From an uncultured Klebsiella sp. (GTDB lineage Bacteria > Verrucomicrobiota > Verrucomicrobiia > Limisphaerales > SXTU01): a DNA stretch of 64,000 bases. The stretch covers positions 32,123-96,122 of the forward strand of contig CAZCBE010000004.1 of assembly GCA_964496695.1 (NCBI GenBank), in the 5' to 3' direction. Below are positions 22,373 to 33,463 of this stretch, in pieces. Under the pieces are notes generated by a model, which saw only the letters and a program-made list of their open reading frames with translations, searched no databases and was not told where the DNA came from. Numbering within the stretch: position 1 is the first letter of the stretch; the number at the start of each line of letters is the position of its first letter. The translations under genes and the position numbers were made by a program.

Positions 22373-23953
22373 ATGAGCAAGCGTTTCTACATCACGACCG
22401 CGATTGACTATGTGAACGGCCAGCCGCACCTCGGCCATGCCTACGAGAAGATCATCGCGGATGTCATCGCCCGCAGCCGCCGCGCGCTGGGCGAGGAGGT
22501 CTTCTTTCTCACCGGCCTCGACGAACACGGGCAGAAGGTCCAGCAGGCCGCGCAGGCCGACGGCAAATCCGCCCAGGCCTACTGCGACGAACTCGCCACG
22601 AGCTGGCAGTCCTTCGTCGCCAAACTCGGCCTCACCAACGACGACTTCGTCCGCACCACGTCGGCGCGCCACAAGGACGTCGTGCAGGCCATTCTCACGA
22701 AGCTCCATGCGGAGGGGCACTTCTACCAGGCCAGCACCGAGGGCTTTTACTCCACCAAGGAGGAAACCTTCGTCACCGAGAAGGAACGCCTGCCGGACGG
22801 CACCTTTCCCCCGCACTATGGCGAAGTCGTAAAACTTTCCGAAACCAACTGGTATTTCAAACTGGGCGCACACCAGCAATGGCTCATTGACCACATCGAG
22901 GCGAACCAGTCCTTTATCCAGCCCGACTACCGGCGCAACGAAGTCCTCGGCTTCCTCAAGAACAACACCCTCGAAGACCTCTGCATCAGCCGCCCCGCCG
23001 CCCGCCTCACCTGGGGCATCCCCATCCCCTTCGACCTCGCCTACGTCACCTACGTCTGGTTCGACGCGCTGGTGAATTACGTCTCCGTTCCGGCCATCCA
23101 TGGGGACTTCGACCTCATGGAATATTACGCTCCAGCCATCGCCGCTGCCGGAACGCGCAAGATATTTCCCGGCCCAAAACTATGGCCCGCCGACATCCAC
23201 GTCATCGGCAAGGACATCGTCAAGTTCCACGCCGTTTATTGGCCCATCATGCTCAAGGCCATGGGCCTGCCGCTGCCCAGGCAGCTCCTCGTCCACGGCT
23301 GGTGGCAGAAGGACGGCGCGAAGATGAGCAAGAGCACTGGCAATGTCGTGGACCCCGTCGCTGTCATTGACGACTGGGGTCTCGACGCCTTCCGCTTCTA
23401 CGTCGTGCGCGAACTGGACATCGGCCCCGACGGCAACTGGACCGACGCCGGGTTCGCCGCGCGCTACCAGGCCGAGCTGGCCAACGGCCTCGGCAACCTC
23501 GTCAACCGCTCGCTCTCCATGCTCAAGCGCTACCGCGCCGGCGTCATCCCTGCACGCCACGATGAACTGGCTGCCGACGCGGCCAAGGCGGCTGCGGATA
23601 CTGTGGCCCACCTCCGCGCCAGCGAACTCCAGAAAGCTCTCCACAGCATCTGGACGCTCGTCACCCGCGCGAATCAATACGTGGACCAGACCGCGCCGTT
23701 CCGGCTGGCCAAGGACCCCGCGCAAGCCGCGCGCCTCGACGAAGTGCTCTACAACCTTGCGGAAAGCTGCCGCATCCTCGCCGTGCTGCTGCATCCCTTC
23801 ATCCCCGGCACCGCCGCGCGAATCTACGCCCAGCTCAACCTCCCGGGCTCTCCGGACCAGCTTGCCCTCGCTTCCTGGGGTGGCCTGACGCCGGGCCAAA
23901 CCATCGGCGAACCAGCCGCGCTTTTCCCGCGCAGGGATGCGCCCAAGGCGTGA
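22373..23953 (+). CDS. metG: methionine--tRNA ligase (short form)
   Basis: ATG at 22373 (MSKRFYITTAIDYVNGQPHLGHAYEKI = HIGH motif). KMSKS motif present (GAKMSKSTGNVV). The upstream in-frame extension overlaps the repeat elements and is discarded. Confidence 0.9.
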   Translation: MSKRFYITTAIDYVNGQPHLGHAYEKIIADVIARSRRALGEEVFFLTGLDEHGQKVQQAAQADGKSAQAYCDELATSWQSFVAKLGLTNDDFVRTTSARHKDVVQAILTKLHAEGHFYQASTEGFYSTKEETFVTEKERLPDGTFPPHYGEVVKLSETNWYFKLGAHQQWLIDHIEANQSFIQPDYRRNEVLGFLKNNTLEDLCISRPAARLTWGIPIPFDLAYVTYVWFDALVNYVSVPAIHGDFDLMEYYAPAIAAAGTRKIFPGPKLWPADIHVIGKDIVKFHAVYWPIMLKAMGLPLPRQLLVHGWWQKDGAKMSKSTGNVVDPVAVIDDWGLDAFRFYVVRELDIGPDGNWTDAGFAARYQAELANGLGNLVNRSLSMLKRYRAGVIPARHDELAADAAKAAADTVAHLRASELQKALHSIWTLVTRANQYVDQTAPFRLAKDPAQAARLDEVLYNLAESCRILAVLLHPFIPGTAARIYAQLNLPGSPDQLALASWGGLTPGQTIGEPAALFPRRDAPKA

Positions 23954-24086
23954 GCTGGACACTCCTGTCCAGAGGTGCTGCGCGGGGAACAGCTCAAAGG
24001 GGACAGGAGTGTCCCCTTCACGCCCGGTAGGGCGCGATTCGCCGGTGCCCGCGCCCTGATCGGCGGACAGAGTGTCCGCCTCACGA
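23950..24086. repeat. cluster of three inverted or partial copies of the GGACA...TGTCC hairpin repeat
   Basis: ctggacactcctgtccag (23955-23972), aaaggggacaggagtgtccccttcacg (about 23997-24023, reverse complement of the upstream unit) and ggcggacagagtgtccgcctcacg (24062-24085). They lie between the metG stop and the stop of the 24081-24932 gene. Confidence 0.7.
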
Positions 24087-24932
24087 TCTCTCGCTGCGCC
24101 GTTTCGTGAAATCCGGCATCTTCTTGAAGCGTTCCAGCGAGTCCTGCTTCCAGTCGCGGGCGGCGGGTGCTGTGGACTTCGTTGGCACGGGCTGAGGAGC
24201 CACCGCCGCATCGGGGGTGCTTTCAGTTTGCTGCCGCGCCGCCGGGGCAGGGGAGGTGCGCGGCTCGAAGTAGGTGCTTTGCGTGAAGGCCGACATCAAG
24301 GGTGCGGGCGACTGCGAGGCCGGCACTGGTTGCCTTGTCGGGGTTGGTTCAGGACTGGCCGCAGCCTGAGGCAGGGCCTCATGTGGAATTGGCGGCGGCG
24401 TGCTCGTCGGCTCCGGCTCCAGCGCCCGCCAACGGAGGCGGAGAGCCGGAGCCGGTCCCACTTGCACGGAGACTTCGCAGTAGTGGAGGTCGTCGAAGCG
24501 GGTCTGGGCGGCGATCTCTTCCGCCTTCACCAGCGCGGCGAGGACGCCATGGACCACGCGCCGGTCGTCATTCGGCTTGAGCATCGAGCGGATCGCCGCC
24601 ACGCCGACGACCTCGACGCGTTCCAGATGCGCGGTGAGCCGGGCCGCGATGCCCAGTTCCATGTCCACGCCGGTCAGCGCGTAGCCGGCCCGCAAGAAGA
24701 CTGGCGCACCTTCGTTCAACTCGCGGACTGCCAGGTTTACGGTTTCGCCGGTTTCCGCCCGGAGGCCGGCGATGCTGGCCTGCACCTCGGTGCGAAGCTG
24801 CTGAAGCTGGCTGGTGGTCTGCGTGACGATGTCCTTGGCCTGCTCGATCCGCTCCGGCGCAGTCTCCAGCAGTTCCCGCACGCGCTCAGCTTGCTGCGAG
24901 AGTTCCTTGGCCCGGCGAAGCATCTTGCTCAT
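24081..24932 (-). CDS. hypothetical coiled-coil / proline-rich protein (283 aa), last gene of the flotillin-linked cassette
   Basis: ATG at 24932 (MSKMLRRAKELSQQAERVRELLE...). N-terminal heptad-like helices, a central conserved-looking block (GYALTGVDMELGIAARLTAHLERVEVVG), and a Pro/Ala/Thr-rich C-terminus. Preceded by a 134-bp spacer carrying direct and inverted repeats. Confidence 0.55.
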   Translation of the reverse strand: MSKMLRRAKELSQQAERVRELLETAPERIEQAKDIVTQTTSQLQQLRTEVQASIAGLRAETGETVNLAVRELNEGAPVFLRAGYALTGVDMELGIAARLTAHLERVEVVGVAAIRSMLKPNDDRRVVHGVLAALVKAEEIAAQTRFDDLHYCEVSVQVGPAPALRLRWRALEPEPTSTPPPIPHEALPQAAASPEPTPTRQPVPASQSPAPLMSAFTQSTYFEPRTSPAPAARQQTESTPDAAVAPQPVPTKSTAPAARDWKQDSLERFKKMPDFTKRRSERS

Positions 24933-25066
24933 AGAGGGTGGGTGGATGACTCAACGTCATGCTCGAAATTTTGACGCGAATTGCGCGAATTTGCGCGAAA
25001 TGGAATGGCCTGAGGCATGCAGTATCGGGTTTTGAATTCGTGTCAATGGGTGAAATTCGCGTCAAC
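24933..25066. promoter_or_regulatory. repeat-rich spacer (operator/promoter-like) between the giant AAA+ gene and the 283-aa gene
   Basis: ttgacgcgaattgcgcgaatttgcgcgaaat carries tandem gcgcgaa(t/a)t units. An inverted copy aattcgcgtcaa sits about 70 bp away (24975-24985 vs 25057-25067). The segment is AT-richer than the flanks. Confidence 0.35.
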
Positions 25067-28000
25067 TCAACCGGGTTCTTCCGGAATCGGTGGCGGCTTC
25101 GGTGCGGCCGGGTGATGTGAGGCGGCCAGGGCTTCGTTGAAGCGGCGGAGGAAGACGCTTTGGTTCTCCAGCATCTCCTGCGTCACCTCGACTTCCAGCG
25201 TGCCCTGTTTCGCGCGCGCGGCGAGGAGTTCCTGCGACGTGCGGATCTGGTCCCGCTGCTGGCGCGCGAGATCCTCCACGCTGGACATGGTGCTGTGGAG
25301 CATCTCCATCTCGTGCGTGAGGCTGTCCACCTTTTGGGAGAGCGCGCCGGAGTGGGCGGTGCGCAGCGCGCGGCTCAGCTCGACCCGCAGCGCCTTCATG
25401 CCGTCGGTGAACTGATGGATCAACACGCCCATGTCCGTGCCTTGCGCGGCGGTCTGAGACGGCCGTGTCTCCAGGCTCAGGCGGAGGGCTTCGAGCGTCT
25501 TCGCCAGCGTGTCAGCGTCAATGGCCGGAGTGGCCTGGGCGGCCGGCGTCGAGAGCCGCTGCTCCAGCGTGTCGCGAATGGATTCGAGGCCGCCTTGGAA
25601 CGTCGCGAGCTGCGCGACCAGCCGCCCGACCGGGTCGGTCGTGTCGGTGCCGCGCGTGAACTGGTTGCGCTTGAAGGTCCGCTTGATCTCCTCCCAGCGC
25701 GTCTTCTCCTCCGGCGACTGCACGGCGAGCAGTTCCTTGAGCTTGAGCATGTTCGCCTCGGCCCCAGTCGTGAGGGTCTGCGACTCATTGCGGTAGTGGG
25801 CGAGCACGAGCGCGCGGACCTCGGCGTCGTTCATGATGGGCGCGACCTTCTCGGCGAGCCGGTTCATGTTGCGGTAGCTGCCTTGCAACCGGAACGCCGG
25901 CTCGGTGCGGAACTCGTCGGCCTGCGCGGCGGAGGCGATGTATTCCTGGTTCACGCGCAGCACGATGTCGCGGATGGCCACGAGCTTGCGCAGCACATTG
26001 AGAATCTCCTCGATCTCCTGCGCGGAGTAACTGCCATCGAAGGTTTCGCTCTCGGGCTGGCCCGCGCCGGTCGCGGCCATGCGGATGAAGGTGCGCACGT
26101 CCTTCTGGCTGCGGTTGGCGAGCGGAGCGAGCACGGCGTTCGACGTGACGGCGTTTTCGAGATAGCTGGCCTTGAAAGAATCCGCGTTCCCACCGGCGGC
26201 GATGTCACCCAGGTTGTAGGTGTCGGCGCGGTTCGAGAGCATGTCCGGCAGCTTGAACTTCAGCCCGCTCTCCGTGTAGGGGTTGCCGCACATCACCACG
26301 ACGACCTTGCGCCCGCGCAGGTCATAGGTGCGCGGCTTGTTGCGCCAGACGCCCTCGATGCGGCGCTGGCCATCGCAGAGGGAGATGAACTTCTGGAGGA
26401 ACTCCGGGTTTGTGTGCTGGATGTCGTCCACGCAGATCATCACGTTGTCGCCCATCTCCAGCGCGAGGTTGAGCTTCTGGATTTCCTCGCGCGCCGCGGC
26501 GTTGGGCGCCTCCTGCGGGTCGAGCGACGTGACGTTGTGGCCGAGGGCAGGGCCGTTGATCTTGACGAACACGATGCCCAGCCGGCTGGCGACGTATTCC
26601 ATCAGCGTCGTCTTGCCGTAGCCGGGCGGCGAGATGAGCAGCAGCAGGCCCATCAGGTCCGTGCGCTTGGTCGCGCCCGCCGCGCCGACCTGCTTGGCGA
26701 GGTTGTCGCCGACGAGCGGGAGATAGACCTGGTCAATGAGCTGGTTGCGCACGAACGAGGTCAGCACCTTGGGCTTGAACTCGTCGAGCCGCAGCTTGGC
26801 GCGTTCGCGGTCGAGCAGCTCCTGCTTGAGCCGGTGGAACTGCTCGAAGCGCGGCACCACGTCGCGCTCGAAGTGGCGAAGCTTGTCGGTGAACGCGAGG
26901 TAGTCGAAGTGATAACGGCTCTCGCGCAGCGTGGCGTGCGCGCCTTTCATGCCTTCGAGCTTCGCGGTGGTGCTCGCGGCAACCATGGTGCGGGGCAGGG
27001 CGTCGCCGCAGAAGACAATCGCGGCCACCTCGTCGAGGTGCGTCCGGCTGGACTGGCCCAGCAGGAAGCCGCGCGTCCAGTCGCGGACCAGTTCGAACTC
27101 GCTCGCAGGATGCGATGCGAGAGCCTGGCGGGCTTGCGCGAAGTCATCTTCGCAGCCCTTCACCACGAGATGCTGTCTGAGGGCGGAGGTGAGCTGCTCG
27201 GCCTCGTGGCTGGAGGCGAAAGTGTCGCCGGTGGTCAGCTCGTGGAAGAGGTATTCGCCGGCGGGAGCGGCGATGTCAGGGGCGAAGAGCTTCGTCTCCT
27301 CAATGAAGACAGCCAGCAGCGCCTGCAACGCATGGATATAAACCTGCTGGGTGGGGTCCCCGGGGAAGAGGCGGCTGCGCGTGCCGAAGCCCTTGAGCTT
27401 CGCGGTCCAGAGGGCGCGGGTGTCCGGTGGACAGAAGCGGAGCCACCAGACCACGGCACATGCGCGGACGGTAGGATGGAAGCGCGCGAGGCGGAGCGCC
27501 GTGTGCGTGCTGAGCAGCGTGTGAAAGACACGCGCGGCGTCGAGGTCGTGGATGCCTTTCATGTAGCCCTCGGCGTAGCGGGCCTGCATGAAGTGCTGGA
27601 CGGCAGCGAGGCGGGTTTCGTCGTTGAGTGAGAGAGCGTCGGCGAGCGTGCGCGCAGCCCCCTCACCCCGGCCCTCTCCCCCACTGGGGGAGAGGGAGAA
27701 GAAGGCGCCGGACTCCGCGGCCTTCAACATCTGCCAGGCGAGATACTCGGCGCGATAGACCTGCGCGTTTTCGGAGATGACTTCCTGCTCCCACACATCG
27801 CGCGTCGCGAGGAATGCGTCGTCCGTGACCGGCTCGAAATACTTCGTGCTGGTCAGGTGGACGTGCTGCACGCCATCGCGGTTGACCACGGTGAGTTCGA
27901 GCGGCTGCGTGTTGGTGTTGAACTGGTGCCGGCCAAGCTGGATGACGTTCGGGCCGCCGGTGAACAGCTCCTGCCGGTCCTTCAACTGCCGCACTGCCTC

Positions 28001-30547
28001 CTGCTGCACGCTCTTGAGGCGGCCTTGCAGGTCATCGGCTTTCACCGAGTCGCCGAGCGTGAGGAGCTGGGCGACGTGATCGCGCACCTTCGCGATCATC
28101 AGGTCCGACGCCATGTAGGTGTGGATCGCCTCGACCGACTCCATCCCCGCGAGCCGGTTCTGGATGACCTTGAGGATGCGCTCGGCAGCGGTGAGGAGGG
28201 CCGAGGCGCGGCGGTTACGCTGCTCGACGAGCGCGACCTTCCGCTGCTCAAACGCCTCGTAGAGCGACGTGCGCTTCTCGGCGAGCTGGACGGTGTAATC
28301 CTCGAAGTCGGCGAACGCGCCCTCCAGCTCCTCGATTTGCACCGTGAGCCGGTTCAGATACTCATCGCACTTCGCCGGGGCGTCGCAGAGGTCGAGGTAA
28401 CTCGCGGCGGACTGGCTCAACAGCTTGAGCTTCGCGCTGAACTGCGCCGCGCCCTCGGTGGCCACCAGCTCCTGCAGGCGCTTCTTCAACGCCGCCTTGA
28501 CCTGGTTCAGCGTCGAGTAGATCGCGGTGATGCCATCAATGATGCGGGTGGTCTCGGTCGCGTCCTCGATCTTGAGGTTGTTGACGATCTCAATGAGCAG
28601 CTCCAGCTCCGCGCCCGCCTTGGCGACGGCCTGCTCGACCTGCCGGCCCTCCGACGCCTTCGCGACCTTGTCCACGCCGGCAAGCTGTTCCTCCGCCTGT
28701 TTACGATACGGCTCCAGGGCGGCCGGTTGGAGCAGAAACTTTACGCACGCGCGGGAAAGCTCCTCCGTCTGCGTGGTCACGGCGGCCTCGGTGGCCTCAA
28801 TCGCCGCGAGGTCCACATAGCGGACTTCCTTGAGCGTGATGAGTTCGCCGCGCAGTTGCCTAAGCGCGGCGAGGTTCGTGACGAAGTCGTTGAGCGAACG
28901 CAGACCCGCGCGCCGCACGGCCTGAAAGCGCTCTTCGCAGCGCGCCTTGACGTCCTTTACCCGCTGCACAGCCTCGCGCTGGAGGCGGCGCACCTTTTCA
29001 AACTCATCCACCGCCTTGTCCGCCGTCTCGCCCACGGCACGGAGCGCCGCGTCCAGACCGAAGCCGTCCTCGCTCGACAGCCACGAATAGGCGTCGAGCA
29101 TCGCGCCAGTGCGCTTCACGAGGTCGGCGTAGAGCTGGGCGTAAGGACTTTCTTTCCGGGCGAGCGTGAGCACCTCGTTGCACTCGGCCAGGCAGCGGAC
29201 CACCTCCTTGTTGCCGACCTGGTAGAGGAACGCGTCCCGCTTGCCGGCCGGCTCGTAGCCCGCCTGATAGAACGGCGTCTGGCGGAGCTGAATCTGGTGA
29301 TGCCGCTGCGGCTCGGCCTCGGCGCGGAAGACGACGAGGTGGCCGTTGGGGAAGAGCGAGAAGCCGTTGCAGGTGATGCGTTCCTCGACCTTCTGCGCGA
29401 TCAGGCGGTAGGGGAGCAGGGCGTATTGCCCGGTGTCGTTCTTGAAGAAGATGTAGAGTGAGTCCTCGCCGTTGGGCGCGTGGATGATGCGCTCCAGGGT
29501 CATCGGCTCCTCCTTGGTCTCGAAGCGCTTCAGCTCGCCGCTGCTGAGGTAGTAGCCATCCGGGAAGATCAGGCCGTGCTCCTCGGGCAGCAGCGCGCAG
29601 GACTGGCCGATGCTGTCCACACGCTCCGCCGTCTGGGTCTTCTCGTTGAAGATGAAGTAGCGCGCGGCGGTTTCCTTGTAAGGCCGGATCTTGAGCAGGA
29701 TCAGGTGGCCGAGAATCGCATAGGCGATCTCCGCGTCATCCACCTTCTGAAACTTGTCTTCGACGGGTTCGGAGTAAACGCCCTCGCCGGTGGCGGTGTT
29801 GTCCTCGACCTTGATGGTCAGGTCGCCCTCGATGCTCTCGACGAACACCCGGTCCTCGATGGAAACGTGCGGGTGGTCGCCGTAGCGAAAAGACTGCCGG
29901 TCCGGGGTGCGCCAGCGGAATTGGTGCGACGGCGGGAAGCCAATCTTGCGGAACTCGGCCTCCGCGCGGCCGTCCACGTATCGGAGGCGGCCGTCATCAT
30001 AAACCCACTTGAACACCGCCAGATCATTCAACCCCGCGCCAATGCGGAAGACCATGAAGAGGTGCGCCTCAATCAGGGAGAACTTGTGGAAGGCCGCGCG
30101 GTCGTAAACCTTGTAGAGCCGCTTGAAGTCGGTGAGGAAACTCTTGTCCTGCAGGACGGTGAGTTCCGCCTCCTTGAAGGTTCCGGCCGCTTCGTCGCGC
30201 CGGTAGAGGGCGAACACATCACCGAGTTCGATGGCCTTCTTCAGCCCGAAACTGACGTTGAAGCCGAAGAGGAACTGACCCTCGCCAAGCTGCACCATGT
30301 CCTGCGGGATGCAGTTGTGCGAGGTGGTGATGCGGTCGGCCTGGAGGAGCTTGAACTCCACGTTGCCGAAGACCTCGCCGCGCCGGGCGTCGAGCTTCGC
30401 CATGCGCTCGCGCAACGCCTCCGCGTGCGTGCCGAGGCGCTGGCGGATGACCTCGTAGGTCGCGCTGCCGAGCGCGGCGGCGGCAGACGGCTGGGCTGCG
30501 GGAGCTGACGCGGCGGGCTGTGGTTCGGTTGGCTTAGGGTCGGCCAT
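25067..30547 (-). CDS. giant (1,826 aa) protein with coiled-coil core and a single AAA+ ATPase module (AAA_5/MoxR-dynein-like), function unknown
   Basis: ATG at 30547 overlaps the end of the upstream small gene by 14 nt. The N-terminal ~430 aa have no recognisable motif, and about 650 aa are E/A/L/R/K-rich coiled-coil. Walker A LLLISPPGYGKTTLMEYV is encoded at about nt 26605-26640. Walker B is VMICVDDIQHTNPEF, followed by RKVVVVMCGNPYTES (the NP-containing sensor segment typical of AAA_5). The C-terminus ends Pro-rich (AAPKPPPIPEEPG). Confidence 0.85.
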   Translation of the reverse strand: MADPKPTEPQPAASAPAAQPSAAAALGSATYEVIRQRLGTHAEALRERMAKLDARRGEVFGNVEFKLLQADRITTSHNCIPQDMVQLGEGQFLFGFNVSFGLKKAIELGDVFALYRRDEAAGTFKEAELTVLQDKSFLTDFKRLYKVYDRAAFHKFSLIEAHLFMVFRIGAGLNDLAVFKWVYDDGRLRYVDGRAEAEFRKIGFPPSHQFRWRTPDRQSFRYGDHPHVSIEDRVFVESIEGDLTIKVEDNTATGEGVYSEPVEDKFQKVDDAEIAYAILGHLILLKIRPYKETAARYFIFNEKTQTAERVDSIGQSCALLPEEHGLIFPDGYYLSSGELKRFETKEEPMTLERIIHAPNGEDSLYIFFKNDTGQYALLPYRLIAQKVEERITCNGFSLFPNGHLVVFRAEAEPQRHHQIQLRQTPFYQAGYEPAGKRDAFLYQVGNKEVVRCLAECNEVLTLARKESPYAQLYADLVKRTGAMLDAYSWLSSEDGFGLDAALRAVGETADKAVDEFEKVRRLQREAVQRVKDVKARCEERFQAVRRAGLRSLNDFVTNLAALRQLRGELITLKEVRYVDLAAIEATEAAVTTQTEELSRACVKFLLQPAALEPYRKQAEEQLAGVDKVAKASEGRQVEQAVAKAGAELELLIEIVNNLKIEDATETTRIIDGITAIYSTLNQVKAALKKRLQELVATEGAAQFSAKLKLLSQSAASYLDLCDAPAKCDEYLNRLTVQIEELEGAFADFEDYTVQLAEKRTSLYEAFEQRKVALVEQRNRRASALLTAAERILKVIQNRLAGMESVEAIHTYMASDLMIAKVRDHVAQLLTLGDSVKADDLQGRLKSVQQEAVRQLKDRQELFTGGPNVIQLGRHQFNTNTQPLELTVVNRDGVQHVHLTSTKYFEPVTDDAFLATRDVWEQEVISENAQVYRAEYLAWQMLKAAESGAFFSLSPSGGEGRGEGAARTLADALSLNDETRLAAVQHFMQARYAEGYMKGIHDLDAARVFHTLLSTHTALRLARFHPTVRACAVVWWLRFCPPDTRALWTAKLKGFGTRSRLFPGDPTQQVYIHALQALLAVFIEETKLFAPDIAAPAGEYLFHELTTGDTFASSHEAEQLTSALRQHLVVKGCEDDFAQARQALASHPASEFELVRDWTRGFLLGQSSRTHLDEVAAIVFCGDALPRTMVAASTTAKLEGMKGAHATLRESRYHFDYLAFTDKLRHFERDVVPRFEQFHRLKQELLDRERAKLRLDEFKPKVLTSFVRNQLIDQVYLPLVGDNLAKQVGAAGATKRTDLMGLLLLISPPGYGKTTLMEYVASRLGIVFVKINGPALGHNVTSLDPQEAPNAAAREEIQKLNLALEMGDNVMICVDDIQHTNPEFLQKFISLCDGQRRIEGVWRNKPRTYDLRGRKVVVVMCGNPYTESGLKFKLPDMLSNRADTYNLGDIAAGGNADSFKASYLENAVTSNAVLAPLANRSQKDVRTFIRMAATGAGQPESETFDGSYSAQEIEEILNVLRKLVAIRDIVLRVNQEYIASAAQADEFRTEPAFRLQGSYRNMNRLAEKVAPIMNDAEVRALVLAHYRNESQTLTTGAEANMLKLKELLAVQSPEEKTRWEEIKRTFKRNQFTRGTDTTDPVGRLVAQLATFQGGLESIRDTLEQRLSTPAAQATPAIDADTLAKTLEALRLSLETRPSQTAAQGTDMGVLIHQFTDGMKALRVELSRALRTAHSGALSQKVDSLTHEMEMLHSTMSSVEDLARQQRDQIRTSQELLAARAKQGTLEVEVTQEMLENQSVFLRRFNEALAASHHPAAPKPPPIPEEPG

Positions 30548-30920
30548 ACATCGCGAAGTAAAACCAAAGGCCGAACAGCGCCGTTGATGCCACGGATAAA
30601 ATCGTCGCGATGATCAGGCGCAACTTCCAACCCTGCTCCATCAATTGGCGCACGCCAGCATAAGCCAAGGCCGGTGCCACAAAGATGCTCAGCAGGAAAG
30701 TGGGCTTGGCCAGATGCAGTGGCCACATGAACCAGAAGACAAGGAACGTCCACCCGGTCAAAATGAACACAATGCTGCTCCAAGCGAGCATCTGCGACGG
30801 GGTGATTGGCCGTTGCAGCCTCACCTGATGAGCTGACGTTTGCGATCTGGGTGTTGAAGGCATTTTTCGCGCAAGAGCCACGATTCTGCATTCGCTTACC
30901 AACGCGTTCCAACCACTCAA
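30534..30920 (-). CDS. small integral membrane protein (about 3 TM helices), translationally coupled on both sides
   Basis: TTG start at 30920 overlaps the flotillin TGA (TTGA). An alternative ATG gives MLAWSSIVFILTGWTFLVFWFMWPLHL...FVAPALAYAGV...LIIATILSVASTALFGLWFYFAMYG. The stop lies inside the first codons of the giant gene. Confidence 0.5.
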   Translation of the reverse strand: MSGWNALVSECRIVALARKMPSTPRSQTSAHQVRLQRPITPSQMLAWSSIVFILTGWTFLVFWFMWPLHLAKPTFLLSIFVAPALAYAGVRQLMEQGWKLRLIIATILSVASTALFGLWFYFAMYGRP

Positions 30921-33085
30921 TTCCGCTTCGCCACCTCAGTCACCACCATGCTGGCCGGCGCGTCATGCACGCCCCGTTCTTTCGCCGCACTCAACGCGGA
31001 CCGCATCAACGACTGCATACCGCTGTCCTGGGTGGAGGCGATCAGCTTGGCCAGCAGCGCGGAGAGGGTGAGGTTTTTTACGTCCTCGCTGCTGAGGCCG
31101 AAATCCGTCACCCACTGCCGCACCTGCGTCTTGAAGTGATCCGGGTCGCCGCTGAAGAACGTGCTCTTCACGTCCGTGAGGACGGTGCTGTTGTTCACCA
31201 TGCGGTCCACGGACTTGCCAGTGCCGACGGCCTTGACGATCTTCTCGAAGAAGTCGTTCTCGCCGCCGACGATGTCTATGTGCGCGTGCTTGAGCGCCTC
31301 GCCCACGATGTTCGAGTGCGACTGCGCCACATCCCGCTGCACATGGATGGCGGCCAGCTCGACGTCGCGTTCCTTGGCGAGCCGGAGCTTGAACTCCTCG
31401 TGCTCCCGGCCGGCGTCGTGCAGAAGCTTCATGGACTCGGCCTTCTGGTGAATGGCTTTCGCTTCGGCTGATCCTCTCGCCTCGATGCCGGTGGCGACAG
31501 CGATTTCCTTCTGCTTGGTCCCTTCCGCCTCGGCGGACGCCTGCGACTGGGTGTTCTGGGCCAGCACTGCGCCCTTGGCTTTGGAGACATCGGCCTCGGC
31601 GAGCCCGACTTCCTTGATGGCGCTGGCGTCAACCTTCCTGGCCCCGGCCTTCGCGGTGATGACGCGGGCTTCGGCCAGCCCCTTCGCAGCTTCCATGGCG
31701 GCGATGCCCTCGGCCTGCTGTTCGGCGGCGTGGCGCTTTTTGTCGCTGGCTTTGGCCTCGGCGTCGGCGGTGGTCTGGAGGCGCTCGGCATCGCGGAGTG
31801 CGGCGTCGCGTCCGGCATCCGCGGCGGTGATGACCTTGATCTTCTCGCCCTCGGCATGATGGCGGTCGGCTTCCTTCTGCGCCTCGGCGGCGACGACCTT
31901 CTCGACCTGCTCCTTCTTGGCAATCATGTCCGCCTCGATCAGCGTGACCTCGCGGACGCGCTCGGCAGTCATGCGGGCTTCGATGTTGTCCTTCTCCTGC
32001 TGCTGCTGCACGACGCCCTTTTCCTCGGCTACCACCGTGGCGCGCTTGCGCTGCACCTCGACGGCCGCCTCGGCGACCTTCACCTCTTTGTCCATCTCGG
32101 CCAGCGACACGGTGCGCTCGCGGCGGACACGCGCCTCCTCGCCCTCCTGCACGGACTCCTGGTCCAGGCGCTGCTTCTCCTTCTTCACGGTGAACTCGCG
32201 CTCCTGCACAGCGCGGTTCATGTCCTCCTGGCGGAGGCGGATGGCTTCCTCGGCTTCGATGCGTTTGCCTTCGACCTCGCGGCGGCGGGCTTCGATGATC
32301 TTGCGGGACTCGGCCTCCTCGTTGGCCTTCACCTCGGTGATGGCGCGGGTCTGCTTGGCGGTGTCCTCCTCGTTGCGGCGCCGCTGCTCGCGCTTGGCGA
32401 TGTCGGCGTCGGCGTTTTCCTTTTCCACCTGCACCTGCGCGCGCTGGGAGAATTCGTTGGCGATGACGCGTTCGCGCTGGGTGATCTCGGTGATCTTCTT
32501 GATGCCCTCGGAGTCGAGCACGTTGCTCGGGTCATGCTGGTCCAGCGGGGTCTGCTCCAGATAGTCAATCGCCACGTCCTGCAGGATGAAGCCGTCCAGG
32601 TCCTTGCCAATGGTCGCCTGGATTTGCTCGCGGAACTTGGTGCGCTCGGTGAACAGCTCGTGGAATTCCATCTGCTTGCCGGCGGTCTTGAGCGCCTCAG
32701 AGAATTTCGCCTCGAACAGCTCGCGGAGCTGGTTGAGGTCGGAGACGCGTTCCGGCGTGAGCATCTGGGCGACCTTGCGGACGCTCTCCGCCGTGGCGTC
32801 CACTCGGATGTAGAAGGCCACGGAGATGTCCGCGCGGATGTTGTCCTTGCAGACCAGGCCGTCCTTGCCCTTGCGCTGAATTTCGATTTTTTTGACGGAG
32901 ATGTCCACCAGTTCGAGGGTCTGGACAATGGGCAGGCGCACCATCCAATCAAAGGAGACACGCATCCCGCCCACGCCGACGATGACGCCAGCCTTGCCCG
33001 GCTGAATCTTGCGGATGCAAACGGCGAGTCCGACCGTGAGGCCCAGAAGTCCCATGAAGAGAAGTCCTAAGAGGAGGTATTCCAT
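30917..33085 (-). CDS. flotillin-like SPFH/Band-7 domain protein (long form, 722 aa)
   Basis: N-terminal TM segment (MEYLLLGLLFMGLLGLTVGLAV) followed by an SPFH domain (IQPGKAGVIVGVGGMRVSF...IVQTLELVDISVKKIEIQRKGKDGLVCKDNIRADISVAFYIRV). Then a very long EA/ER-rich coiled-coil and a C-terminal flotillin-type region. Confidence 0.85.
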   Translation of the reverse strand: MEYLLLGLLFMGLLGLTVGLAVCIRKIQPGKAGVIVGVGGMRVSFDWMVRLPIVQTLELVDISVKKIEIQRKGKDGLVCKDNIRADISVAFYIRVDATAESVRKVAQMLTPERVSDLNQLRELFEAKFSEALKTAGKQMEFHELFTERTKFREQIQATIGKDLDGFILQDVAIDYLEQTPLDQHDPSNVLDSEGIKKITEITQRERVIANEFSQRAQVQVEKENADADIAKREQRRRNEEDTAKQTRAITEVKANEEAESRKIIEARRREVEGKRIEAEEAIRLRQEDMNRAVQEREFTVKKEKQRLDQESVQEGEEARVRRERTVSLAEMDKEVKVAEAAVEVQRKRATVVAEEKGVVQQQQEKDNIEARMTAERVREVTLIEADMIAKKEQVEKVVAAEAQKEADRHHAEGEKIKVITAADAGRDAALRDAERLQTTADAEAKASDKKRHAAEQQAEGIAAMEAAKGLAEARVITAKAGARKVDASAIKEVGLAEADVSKAKGAVLAQNTQSQASAEAEGTKQKEIAVATGIEARGSAEAKAIHQKAESMKLLHDAGREHEEFKLRLAKERDVELAAIHVQRDVAQSHSNIVGEALKHAHIDIVGGENDFFEKIVKAVGTGKSVDRMVNNSTVLTDVKSTFFSGDPDHFKTQVRQWVTDFGLSSEDVKNLTLSALLAKLIASTQDSGMQSLMRSALSAAKERGVHDAPASMVVTEVAKRN

Positions 33086-33463
33086 AAGCGTGTCGGTTAG
33101 TGGTTGGTGGTGCTGTCCGTTGTGCAGCGTTTAAGGCATTTCTTCGGGACGACGTATTAACTACTAAATCATTCGGAGGCAGGCCAGTGGAATCAGGCAG
33201 TGGAATTGTAGAAGATGTGAGGGTCCACGTTCGAGTGGTCGCGTAGCGACGCCCGAGTGCTGCGATGGGTGAATTCAGCGGTTCAAGCGTCGCTACGCGA
33301 CGCCGGTCGTCGGCTGGCCTGACCGTGGGTTAAAACCCACGGCTACCGTCGGAACCTCGCTATGCGAAGGGACCGGTCGCACGGGTCGGTTGCACAAAGG
33401 CTGACGTGCGTCAGTTGCAGGCCGGTTCCGGGATTGGCCAGAAGCCAGCCACCCTGCGCTTGC
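33086..33463. promoter_or_regulatory. palindrome-rich leader/promoter region upstream of the flotillin cassette
   Basis: Inverted pair gtcgcgtagcgacgc (about 33238) and gcgtcgctacgcgac (about 33292), each itself palindromic. Hairpins ccgtgggttaaaacccacgg and ctgacgtgcgtcag. An AT-rich tract sits at about 33150-33200. Confidence 0.4.

Follow-up and report, generated by a model that had tools for sequence, protein, structure and literature searches.

The question raised by this locus is whether it encodes a new kind of membrane-associated system. An earlier note, written from the DNA sequence of a 64,000-nucleotide stretch (the window), had described it as an undescribed, translationally coupled cassette that links a flotillin to a giant AAA+ protein. 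The four ORFs of 722, 128 (TTG start), 1826 and 283 amino acids (aa) are indeed located on the minus strand in the same direction and at the positions that the note had given (Table 1). The TGA of the flotillin gene overlaps the TTG of the 128-aa ORF (TTGA), whose 3' end overlaps the ATG of the 1826-aa gene by 14 nt, and a 134-bp spacer separates the latter from the 283-aa gene. But the system is not undescribed: the operon was already reported in a purely computational comparative genomics study (Ravi et al. 2024, mSystems, PMC11237479), and the ATPase belongs to the named Pfam family DUF3686. On balance, we favor the view that the cassette represents the Verrucomicrobial version of an AAA+ module that is widespread and linked to flotillin, and in which the ATPase would act in membrane remodelling on a flotillin scaffold.

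Table 1. Features of the locus (positions refer to the window)
Feature	Position	Strand	Basis
Upstream leader, 378 bp	33086..33463	-	repeat search, alignment with L081 and L051
Flotillin-like SPFH protein, 722 aa	30917..33085	-	ORF and translation, Band_7, synteny
SPFH/Band_7 domain, residues 26-171	32573..33010	-	Pfam PF01145, profile positions 2-140 of 176
Non-conserved 128-aa ORF	30534..30920	-	no homologs in related loci, low GC
Giant cytoplasmic AAA+ ATPase, 1826 aa, DUF3686/'DNA repair ATPase' family	25067..30547	-	Pfam, models, fold searches
DUF3686 domain, residues 45-487, N-terminal helix and about seven four-stranded beta units	29087..30415	-	
Helical rod, residues ~446-861, spectrin-like three-helix bundles including DUF7902	27965..29212	-	
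Single AAA+ module, residues ~1287-1493	26069..26689	-	
C-terminal coiled-coil tail, residues ~1639-1811, Pro-rich tip	25115..25633	-	structure model, tblastn
Spacer between ATPase gene and 283-aa gene, 134 bp	24933..25066	.	repeat search
Orphan partner protein, 283 aa	24081..24932	-	synteny, alignment, profile search
GGACA-containing hairpins between convergent metG and 283-aa gene	23947..24085	.	repeat search

The flotillin and ATPase genes form a conserved pair

We analyzed the neighborhood of the ATPase gene by tblastn in all 59 loci whose upstream flank extended over 4.2 kb or more. A flotillin gene was located directly upstream and on the same strand in every one of them; the median gap between the tblastn matches was 175 nt, and the smallest 29 nt. 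This linkage covers five phyla (Verrucomicrobiota, Bacteroidota, Gammaproteobacteria, Actinomycetota, and Deinococcota), and the pair is present in Saprospira, Aureispira, Hymenobacter, Pseudomonas (pQBR103), Proteus, Vibrio, Streptomyces, and Deinococcus. The genes therefore constitute a real and conserved unit, as had been proposed. The accompanying statement that flotillins do not usually pair with giant AAA+ proteins does not apply here, since the two are paired in every related locus examined. The unit is also smaller than a four-gene cassette: in Verrucomicrobiota, three genes are conserved, and across phyla, two. In agreement with the note, Pfam searches identified no nuclease, helicase, or peptidase domain in the four proteins; a VWA domain was likewise not found in any of them.

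The 722-aa protein is a true SPFH/flotillin, as the note had called it. Its first 200 aa match Band_7 with 51.4 bits (E 1.8e-13; cutoff 23.6 bits). With the full-length protein as query, no Pfam hit was obtained, and the Pfam Flot domain was undetected. An N-terminal membrane anchor (residues 1-23, hydrophobic segment 1-19) precedes the SPFH domain, which is followed by an Ala/Glu-rich coiled coil (residues ~200-560; composition rich in A, E, R, and K) and a conserved globular region at the C-terminus (~562-705). Orthologs upstream of the ATPase share 36-91% identity, and those of Streptomyces and pQBR103 are annotated as 'flotillin family protein' and 'SPFH domain-containing protein'. The flotillin-family profile weakly matched the coiled-coil part of QmcA and erlin, whose entries are large SPFH oligomers with 26 and 13 chains per entry, respectively.

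The YqiK protein of E. coli has 553 aa. The window flotillin, with 722 aa, is longer than YqiK and is always followed by a giant ATPase; the Proteus ATPase gene gave no DNA match in complete E. coli genomes. The layout of anchor, SPFH domain, and long Ala/Glu-rich coiled coil is nevertheless that of the YqiK/FloT (SPFH2) flotillins (Hinderhofer et al. 2009, PMC2636767), in a survey from which the word 'ATPase' is absent.

The giant ATPase combines a propeller-like domain, a rod, and one AAA+ module

The ATPase has more than 2000 homologs, which fall into 674 clusters at 50% identity, and full-length members comprise 1504-2036 aa. The domain order is an N-terminal helix, a beta-propeller-like domain, a spectrin-like rod, a small beta domain with a helical region, the AAA+ module, and a coiled-coil tail; a transmembrane segment was not found. 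What had been regarded as a motif-free N-terminal domain of ~430 aa is in fact Pfam DUF3686 (E 3e-163). DUF7902 was detected at residues 610-693 (E 1.7e-23), and AAA and AAA_5 were matched as well, the latter with a score of 24.8 (gathering score 22). Judging from weak fold matches (TM at most 0.40), DUF3686 may adopt a divergent beta-propeller-like fold.

The protein carries a single P-loop, and the motifs of its one AAA+ module were found where the note had placed them. Walker A (SPPGYGKTT) spans residues 1306-1314, with GYGKTT at 1309-1314 (nt 26606-26623). Walker B (VMICVDD, residues 1369-1375) contains Asp-Asp in place of Asp-Glu. The sequence VVVVMCGNP (residues 1415-1423) includes sensor-1 residue N1422, and R1440 is the putative Arg finger. 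The whole family retains Walker A, Walker B in its Asp-Asp form, sensor 1, and the Arg-finger motif. The proposed AAA_5/MoxR assignment is supported by the closest folds, the MoxR ATPases CbbQ and NorQ, at a sequence identity of only 13-15%. With the MoxR class (CbbQ, NorQ, RavA; Pfam AAA_5), beside which the AAA modules of midasin and dynein are named as related, the ATPase shares the AAA_5 match and a pre-sensor-1 beta-hairpin, which the structure model predicts at residues 1396-1409. MoxR proteins have ~250-500 aa and usually a VWA-domain partner, whereas here the module is located near the C-terminus of 1,826 aa; and their Walker B contains Asp-Glu, in contrast to Asp-Asp in the whole family of the window ATPase.

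Among Verrucomicrobial orthologs, mean column identity is 75% over ~1,800 aa, and the alignment points to strong purifying selection. Full-length identity is 61-91% in most Verrucomicrobial loci and 53-56% in a few marine ones, with a fixed architecture. The C-terminal tail consists of long helices (model fragment positions 540-712) with lower pLDDT. It had no tblastn match in homologs from other phyla, which are 1619-1748 aa long and for which the matches end at query residues 1625-1697.

An orphan partner protein and a lineage-specific insert

The 283-aa protein consists of an N-terminal helical segment, an alpha/beta domain (residues ~75-170), and a Pro-rich low-complexity linker (Pro fraction 0.20 in residues 170-283). 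Its C-terminus carries an L.RFK.MP motif that is invariant in the alignment (residues 266-273, nt 24114-24137). A homolog is encoded downstream of the ATPase gene in 48 of 63 loci and in none of the nine loci outside Verrucomicrobiota, and the family appears to be confined to this phylum. A profile search with the family recovered 57 proteins, none with a Pfam domain; the only one named in its source is from Luteolibacter. The protein itself gave no significant match in Pfam and PDB, and no similarity was seen in comparisons with PspA and CesT/Tir.

The note had counted the 128-aa ORF as a coupled gene of the cassette, but it has no homolog in ~80 related loci. It is missing from two close relatives (L081, 91% identical, and L001, 85%), in which flotillin and ATPase genes are separated by 33 nt and ~61 nt, respectively, and the GC content of the interval is 54.8% compared to 64-67% in its neighbors. 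We regard it as a lineage-specific low-GC insert outside the core of the cassette. Hydrophobic segments are located at residues 44-62 and 100-118, and searches in Pfam, NCBIfam, and PADLOC gave no hit. Coding-like codon periodicity (GC3) begins only at an internal ATG at position 30791 and covers the C-terminal 86 codons. The TTGA 'coupling' therefore probably does not represent a real start, and the interval probably encodes at most a small membrane protein of 85 aa with two to three transmembrane segments, starting at this ATG.

The Verrucomicrobial form differs from the published operon

Ravi et al. 2024 (PMC11237479) described operons of Band-7/flotillin, YqiJ/YuaF, and a 'beta-propeller/coiled-coil AAA+ ATPase' that are linked to CesT/Tir-PspA; the latter and a PLD hydrolase are present in some of these operons and missing from others. 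The authors proposed that the operons act in ATP-dependent sub-membrane dynamics. The Hymenobacter locus shows the same arrangement (CesT/Tir-PspA-YqiJ(DUF1449)-flotillin-ATPase), and the ATPase encoded there shares 49% identity with that of the window over 90% of the length. Outside Verrucomicrobiota, the flotillin gene comes after a YqiJ/NfeD-like gene, with CesT/Tir-PspA sometimes present as well. As in yqiJK, a YqiJ-like gene is found upstream of the flotillin orthologs in Bacteroidota, Gammaproteobacteria, and Deinococcus, and pQBR103 carries one co-oriented run of yjfI-pspA(yjfJ)-...-YqiJ-like-SPFH-ATPase.

In contrast, YqiJ/YuaF and PspA were undetected by tblastn in the window and in any Verrucomicrobial locus examined, and there was no CesT/Tir-PspA dyad near the cassette in these loci. 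Compared to YqiK/FloT with its NfeD2 partner (YqiJ/YuaF), the Verrucomicrobial flotillins thus have no detectable NfeD/YqiJ partner. Relative to the published operon, the Verrucomicrobial form instead adds the 283-aa RFK.MP protein, and its ATPase the Verrucomicrobia-type C-terminal coiled-coil tail. Both the published operons and the relatives studied here sometimes include a PLD (HKD) hydrolase. In L081, L051, L020, L047, L053, L074, and Vibrio L089, a PLD gene with a single HKD motif is located behind the module; the window has no such gene. Among the NCBIfam models, its product comes nearest to NucT, DISARM DrmC, and DpdK, but stays under the cutoff of each.

Possible function of the module

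Full-text literature searches returned no experiment on any member of the flotillin-ATPase module. The best available reading is a membrane-associated remodelling role. On the cytoplasmic side of the inner membrane, the flotillin would oligomerize to form a scaffold shaped like a ring or cage, similar to solved SPFH assemblies, to which the ATPase would be recruited via its propeller or rod. The ATPase would in turn oligomerize via its AAA+ module, and ATP binding and hydrolysis would drive the assembly, disassembly, or remodelling of the scaffold or of client complexes in membrane maintenance or envelope stress, much as Vps4 acts on ESCRT-III or FtsH inside the HflK/C cage. With its invariant Asp-Asp Walker B, hydrolysis could be slow. 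The 283-aa protein may serve as an adaptor or regulator that presents the RFK.MP peptide at the end of a flexible Pro-rich linker. In this scheme, we infer the flotillin-ATPase interaction, the oligomeric state, the ATPase activity, and the substrate.

The CesT/Tir-PspA neighbors in Hymenobacter and yjfI-pspA on pQBR103 link the module to membrane stress. For Verrucomicrobiota, the connection to the PSP response is indirect, because neither PspA nor YqiJ was detected there. HflK/C-FtsH is a functional analogy only: an SPFH-family scaffold, a 24-mer in the HflK/C structure, is genetically coupled to an AAA+ ATPase, as is the case here by synteny. FtsH differs from the window ATPase, which has neither protease domain nor transmembrane segment and belongs to another AAA+ clade.

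In some relatives, the module comes with a Nuc/NucT-like PLD gene, whose product could be an effector that hydrolyses nucleic acids or lipids, in place of pure scaffold remodelling. The Asp-Asp Walker B might also indicate weak or switch-like hydrolysis instead of a processive remodeller. Such slow nucleotide turnover would suit a membrane coat, tether, or cytoskeleton-like structure, in which propeller and rod form a lattice or long tether on the flotillin and the AAA+ module only regulates its own assembly. The architecture, with a long helical rod behind a propeller, fits this idea, and Foldseek returned IFT-A subunits, clathrin heavy chain, and the Vps18 propeller. But these hits are weak (TM 0.05-0.4, high rmsd), the rod resembles spectrin and not an alpha-solenoid, and many phyla without internal membranes carry the ATPase family. 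Moreover, the AAA+ catalytic motifs are strictly conserved except for the Walker B Glu, which argues for a working ATPase. We consider such a structure rather unlikely.

An anti-phage or abortive infection system, in which the propeller senses infection and triggers a flotillin membrane effector or the PLD nuclease, is unlikely. Defense systems often contain large ATPases with repeat-type sensor domains, homologs are carried by megaplasmids (pQBR103 and plasmids of Hymenobacter, Deinococcus, and Streptomyces), and the single-HKD PLD gene trails the module in some relatives. However, the window lacks this gene, and PADLOC found nothing significant with the four proteins (best E 0.0086, in a coiled-coil stretch). 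No homolog was present in 50,697 phage records or IMG/VR contigs. The cassette is flanked by chromosomal housekeeping genes (MetRS, ArgRS, Der, a ClpX-like ATPase, FabF, and glutamate synthase), with no defense or mobile-element genes among them. Finally, defense genes usually diversify fast, whereas the orthologs are unusually conserved. Of the membrane-anchored remodelling or defense-like machine suggested in the note, only the remodelling part is retained.

A coiled-coil, SMC/SbcC/RecN-like ATPase acting on DNA is highly improbable: the NCBI name 'DNA repair ATPase', the source name 'DNA repair protein', the Pfam description of PF12458 ('ATPase involved in DNA repair'), and weak RuvB P-loop matches (23 bits, cutoff 282) are opposed by a contiguous MoxR-type AAA+ domain instead of a split ABC/SMC head, by the absence of DNA-binding, nuclease, and helicase domains from the searches, by an invariant partner that is a membrane flotillin (plus YqiJ and PspA in other phyla) and never a repair gene, and by a literature search without any paper in favor of repair. 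The label finds no support in this analysis and most likely goes back to coiled-coil similarity to SbcC/RecN-type COGs.

Noncoding regions of the locus

Repeats and palindromes were found in leader, spacer, and downstream region, as described before, but the distal leader palindromes are not conserved in close relatives. This includes a perfect 15-nt inverted repeat (33238-33252/33287-33301). Conservation in L081 and L051 is limited to the ~110 nt next to the flotillin start (about 33086-33200); these are a candidate promoter/5'UTR, and a sigma-70 consensus scan of the leader gave no site. A direct repeat of the TTGCGCGAA type occurs three times in the spacer, which also contains a 29-nt imperfect inverted repeat and can be aligned with relatives only nearest to the ribosome-binding site; CACGAATT-type repeats were found again in L001. 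The downstream region comprises inverted repeats with 24-nt arms (88% complementarity) and several short perfect hairpins. These GGACA hairpins were not listed in a T-tract terminator scan; they are likely the terminator region shared by metG and the 283-aa gene.

Organization and conservation of the cassette

The ORF listing and the translations contain the four minus-strand genes exactly as the earlier note had claimed, and both the TTGA overlap of the flotillin gene with the 128-aa ORF and the 14-nt overlap of the latter with the ATPase gene can be read directly in the sequence. Apart from the corrections that follow, the original observation is largely real. The GC content of the window is ∼65%, and its closest relatives are MAGs of Limisphaerales and other Verrucomicrobiota. 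The flanking genes in the window are housekeeping genes (encoding MetRS, a ClpX-like ATPase, Der, ArgRS, FabF, and glutamate synthase); they differ between loci and are not conserved.

Features of the cassette region and their positions in the window
Feature	Position	Strand	Type
Flotillin, 722 aa	30917-33085	-	ORF
128-aa ORF, TTG start	30534-30920	-	ORF
Giant ATPase, 1826 aa	25067-30547	-	ORF
283-aa protein	24081-24932	-	ORF
ClpX-like ATPase, 518 aa	33464-35020	-	
Spacer repeats	24960-25066		
GGACA/TGTCC hairpins	23947-24085		

A scan of the genome collection yielded 80 loci, and with those from contig look-ups and plasmid records ∼90 loci were sampled overall. All 59 loci whose upstream flank extends over at least 4.2 kb have a flotillin ortholog upstream of the ATPase gene and on its strand, the gap between the tblastn matches having a median of 175 nt and a minimum of 29 nt. 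The pair was found in Saprospira, Aureispira, Hymenobacter, and another Bacteroidota MAG, as well as in Pseudomonas fluorescens pQBR103, Proteus mirabilis, Vibrio campbellii, Streptomyces, and Deinococcus. A giant ATPase is invariably found beside this flotillin, in at least five phyla. Further ATPase homologs were detected by tblastn alone in Nonomuraea, Halomonas, and Photobacterium, and a DNA search with the Proteus homolog gave no match in E. coli. Copies of the Verrucomicrobia-type operon (65-85% identity) also occur on contigs labelled Klebsiella, Bifidobacteriaceae, Hyphomicrobiales, Kapaibacterium, Methylomirabilota, Cyanophyceae, and others (loci L001, L002, L006, L014, L020, L033, L038, L056-L058, L068, L073, and L076); these labels are probably errors of MAG binning or labelling.

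The proposed linkage of all four genes was confirmed only in part. It stands for flotillin and ATPase and, less generally, for the 283-aa gene, which is found 3' of the ATPase gene in 48 of 63 loci; the nine non-Verrucomicrobial loci all lack it there. It does not stand for the 128-aa ORF, which has no homolog in any related locus examined. This ORF was rejected as a conserved membrane partner, since it shows no homology to ORFs in the equivalent gaps elsewhere. The gap between flotillin and ATPase genes is 33 nt in the 91%-identical locus L081. The interval of the ORF has a GC content of 54.8%, compared to 64-67% in the adjoining genes, and GC3 periodicity is limited to its last 86 codons; it may encode an 85-aa membrane peptide starting from an ATG at position 30791. 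Whether coding or not, this insert is lineage-specific. Other Limisphaerales loci have inserts of 300-1,800 nt, unrelated to it, at their flotillin/ATPase junction, as if this junction tolerated insertions.

Relation to the published operon

The cassette had initially been regarded as a candidate undescribed system, but an operon consisting of flotillin, YqiJ, and a beta-propeller-AAA+ protein has already been described (Ravi et al. 2024, mSystems, PMC11237479; first on bioRxiv in 2020). These three proteins, one of which is a 3TM YqiJ/YuaF protein, are listed beside a CesT/Tir-PspA dyad; a PLD hydrolase is added in some Proteobacteria, and abbreviated operons without PspA are widespread (PMC11237479). 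Table S3 of that study places a 'Betapropeller+Coiled-coil+AAA-ATPase' after the flotillin gene in Dokdonia, and its authors propose chaperone-like, ATP-dependent sub-membrane dynamics (PMC11237479). A 2009 survey of prokaryotic SPFH operons mentions no ATPase (PMC2636767). Our literature searches for DUF3686 (the family of the giant ATPase), PF12458, DUF7902, and flotillin together with MoxR returned no relevant paper, the study by Ravi et al. being found via PspA/Band-7, and we found no experimental study of the DUF3686 ATPase-flotillin operon.

The features of the published flotillin (TM, Band_7, A/E-rich coiled coil) are matched by the window flotillin, and those of the published ATPase by the giant protein (helix, beta-repeat domain, rod, AAA+), which shares 49% identity with its counterpart from a Hymenobacter operon of the published gene order. 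In contrast, the 3TM YqiJ/YuaF protein (DUF1449, NfeD-like) was not detected at the window locus, and neither was the CesT/Tir-PspA dyad of the extended operon in the window; the abbreviated form also lacks the dyad (PMC11237479). Compared to the SPFH2 pairs YqiK-YqiJ and FloT-YuaF, the window has the flotillin half, and no NfeD/YqiJ partner was detected in this lineage, whereas the orthologous flotillin in other phyla does have one, as in the SPFH2-NfeD2 pair. The cassette is a Verrucomicrobial form of an operon kind already known, in which no YqiJ or PspA was detected nearby, an orphan partner is encoded, and the ATPase tail is extended.

Outside Verrucomicrobiota, the flotillin gene has a YqiJ/DUF1449 (NfeD-like) gene directly 5' of it. 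Five YqiJ-like or equivalent upstream proteins used as tblastn queries matched their own orthologs in all nine non-Verrucomicrobial loci except the Streptomyces locus L085; within the limited sensitivity of tblastn, they detected no YqiJ homolog in the window or the Verrucomicrobial loci. Likewise, tblastn detected no PspA homolog, either in the window (64 kb) or in any Verrucomicrobial locus. On the Hymenobacter plasmid (L088, 3571-5412), the gene order is CesT/Tir chaperone, PspA/IM30, DUF1449, flotillin, and ATPase. On pQBR103 (L084, 1-5104), the module directly follows a yjfI-pspA(yjfJ)-rhomboid-DUF2491-DUF350-DUF1190-glutathionylspermidine synthase-like cluster; this plasmid carries the full yjfIJKLMC-like polyamine-linked cluster. 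The module of both plasmids, which are unrelated, directly follows a PspA/IM30 gene and a gene for a CesT/Tir-type (YjfI-like) chaperone.

A gene encoding a Nuc/NucT-like single-HKD PLD protein is found 3' of the module in seven loci, including the two closest annotated relatives and Vibrio. The protein of 231 aa (L081, 16407-17102; the close relative L051, 16380-17072; Vibrio campbellii L089, 12831-13514) is also present in marine Verrucomicrobiales, and its nearest NCBIfam models, all scoring under their cutoffs, are NucT, DISARM DrmC, and DpdK. The window contains no copy of this gene; metG converges directly on the 283-aa gene.

For the 283-aa protein, no significant match was obtained in Pfam, NCBIfam, PADLOC, or PDB. 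A profile search identified 57 relatives, none with a Pfam domain, and the only one named at source is from Luteolibacter. In the family alignment, a variable Pro-rich linker precedes an L.RFK.MP motif that is invariant at the C-terminus. The RFK.MP motif was not found in the ATPases of other phyla, nor at the six Verrucomicrobial loci where no 283-aa homolog was detected. A weak Pfam match to PspA_IM30 (E 0.012) had suggested a PspA/ESCRT-III-like protein. Alignments by hhalign with two operon-linked PspA proteins and one CesT/Tir protein were negative, as was a PDB profile search; the protein was therefore rejected as PspA, ESCRT-III-like, or CesT/Tir.

Domain architecture of the ATPase and the flotillin

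The N-terminal part of the giant protein had been described as motif-free. This was incorrect, as residues 45-487 correspond to Pfam DUF3686 (PF12458; E 3e-163, 543.9 bits vs. a cutoff of 25). They are followed by PF25472 (DUF7902; residues 610-693, 83 bits vs. a cutoff of 26) and by AAA and AAA_5 matches at residues 1302-1425. The protein fits the DUF3686 family, with an N-terminal PF12458, PF25472, one AAA module, and a length of ∼1,600-1,900 aa; its homologs carry the same Pfam set and are named 'DNA repair ATPase', 'AAA family ATPase', or 'MoxR-like ATPase' at source. A structure model of residues 1-1100 (mean pLDDT 77.2) shows a helix (residues 22-60), about seven four-stranded beta units (66-423), long helices (446-861), a small beta domain, and further helices. 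Propeller fold matches of the beta-repeat domain are weak.

The protein has one P-loop (SPPGYGKTT, residues 1306-1314), followed by VMICVDD (1369-1375; nt 26423-26443) and VVVVMCGNP (1415-1423), all of them where they had been located before. In the fold comparison of the AAA+ core, the MoxR-class proteins CbbQ (16.5) and NorQ (16.1) ranked ahead of Midasin (14.4), ClpA (13.5), and Dynein (13.5), and the assignment to AAA_5/MoxR therefore holds; a pre-sensor-1 beta-hairpin is predicted as well. Differences to the MoxR clade were also observed. Its canonical Walker B is hhhhDE with a catalytic Glu, whereas the window ATPase has VMICVDD, and a DD(I/V)QH Walker B is found in all 65 full-length representatives of the 50%-identity clusters of DUF3686 ATPases. 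Walker A, sensor 1, and a putative Arg-finger motif stay conserved in this family. Judged from the motif, the Asp-Asp Walker B may indicate slow or switch-like hydrolysis. Moreover, MoxR proteins usually work with a VWA-domain partner, and neither the four cassette proteins nor 20 other proteins predicted in the window, those of the cassette-flanking genes included, showed such a domain.

The full-length 722-aa protein has no Pfam match at E 0.1 and none in PDB by sequence, whereas its first 200 residues match Band_7 with 51.4 bits vs. a cutoff of 23.6; in the full-length protein, this match is apparently masked by the long coiled coil of low complexity. A hydrophobic anchor/TM is located at residues 1-19, and the coiled coil is Ala/Glu-rich. 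The Pfam Flot model does not match this protein. Its annotated orthologs are named flotillin or SPFH, and automated annotation leaves most orthologs as 'hypothetical protein'. The family profile gave only a weak match to the QmcA coiled coil in PDB. In Aureispira anguillae (L082, 6523-7197), an additional 224-aa Band_7 protein is encoded between the YqiJ-like and flotillin genes. Over its first ∼187 residues it shares 66% identity with the flotillin N-terminus, and its C-terminal tail can be aligned with the end of YqiJ-like proteins. By its sequence, it looks like a duplicated, chimeric SPFH/NfeD mini-protein.

Possible function of the flotillin-ATPase module

To our knowledge, the actual role of bacterial flotillins is still poorly understood. 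SPFH proteins of solved structure assemble into large membrane-bound rings or cages (26 chains in the QmcA entry and 13 in the erlin entry, with the HflK/C 24-mer among the structures cited), and AAA+ proteins of the MoxR class act as oligomeric remodelling or maturation factors. On these grounds, and from the observed flotillin and ATPase parts and their linkage, we infer a mechanism in which flotillin would build a membrane platform and the soluble ATPase would dock on it with its propeller or rod, its AAA+ module serving for oligomerisation. Driven by ATP, the scaffold or its clients would then be assembled, disassembled, or remodelled in the course of membrane maintenance or stress, and the 283-aa protein would be a lineage-specific adaptor. 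The earlier interpretation as a flotillin-coupled AAA+ machine was right on this point. A bolder version, which we offer tentatively and with considerable doubt, is that the DUF3686 protein could be a dedicated flotillin-cage remodeller, a MoxR-class AAA+ protein docking on SPFH assemblies via propeller and spectrin-like rod and controlling their assembly or turnover. In Verrucomicrobiota, the ancestral YqiJ/NfeD adaptor might have been replaced by the unrelated orphan protein, plugged in via its invariant C-terminal RFK.MP, possibly with the lineage-specific coiled-coil tail of the ATPase. If true, this would be a bacterial counterpart of Vps4/ESCRT-III for the SPFH world.

An improbable alternative, suggested only by a weak fold resemblance, is that the giant protein acts as a structural coat or tether. 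Anti-phage defence, an option in the earlier note, seems improbable as well: a PLD gene occasionally accompanies the module and megaplasmids carry it, but PADLOC-DB 2.0 gave no significant match (best E 0.0086-0.064, in coiled-coil or P-loop segments), homologs in phages or viruses were not found, the neighbors in the window are housekeeping genes, and the ATPase is very highly conserved (75% mean column identity over ∼1,800 aa among the Verrucomicrobial orthologs). A function in DNA repair has nothing but the database label in its favor. SMC, SbcC, and RecN proteins have an ABC-type head split by a coiled coil, with an N-terminal Walker A and a C-terminal signature motif and Walker B, whereas the giant protein has a single contiguous AAA+ module (residues ∼1287-1493), and neither SMC/ABC matches nor a second P-loop were found in it. 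This misleading label sits in thousands of genome annotations and, we argue, should be dropped.

For the proposed flotillin-docked ATPase, the conserved giant AAA+ protein provides flotillin with a concrete, testable partner and energy source in at least five phyla. An NfeD-type partner is often taken as the standard companion of SPFH proteins; the Verrucomicrobial variant indicates that operons exist from which it is missing and in which flotillin is accompanied by an unrelated orphan protein. The module is present in tractable hosts, including P. fluorescens SBW25 (plasmid pQBR103, locus tags PQBR_RS00460-00470), Proteus mirabilis, Vibrio campbellii, and Streptomyces.

Additional features of the locus

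The ClpX-like ATPase gene lies upstream of the leader that precedes the flotillin gene, on the same strand as the cassette, and is linked to the cassette in no other locus. Its product reaches 352.7 bits vs. an NCBIfam ClpX cutoff of 359; the first 59 residues lie outside the match, and the protein exceeds the model by ∼100 aa. The part of the leader proximal to flotillin (33086-33200) is conserved in close relatives. The spacer between the ATPase and 283-aa genes contains three TTGCGCGAA direct repeats and an imperfect 29-nt inverted repeat. Similar repeats of the CACGAATT type are found in the spacer of the 85%-identical locus L001 and not in L081 or L051. The GGACA/TGTCC hairpins were not detected by a scan for T-tract terminators. 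They fill the 127-nt gap between the convergent metG and 283-aa genes, include 24-nt arms with 88% complementarity, and are likely to be a bidirectional terminator.
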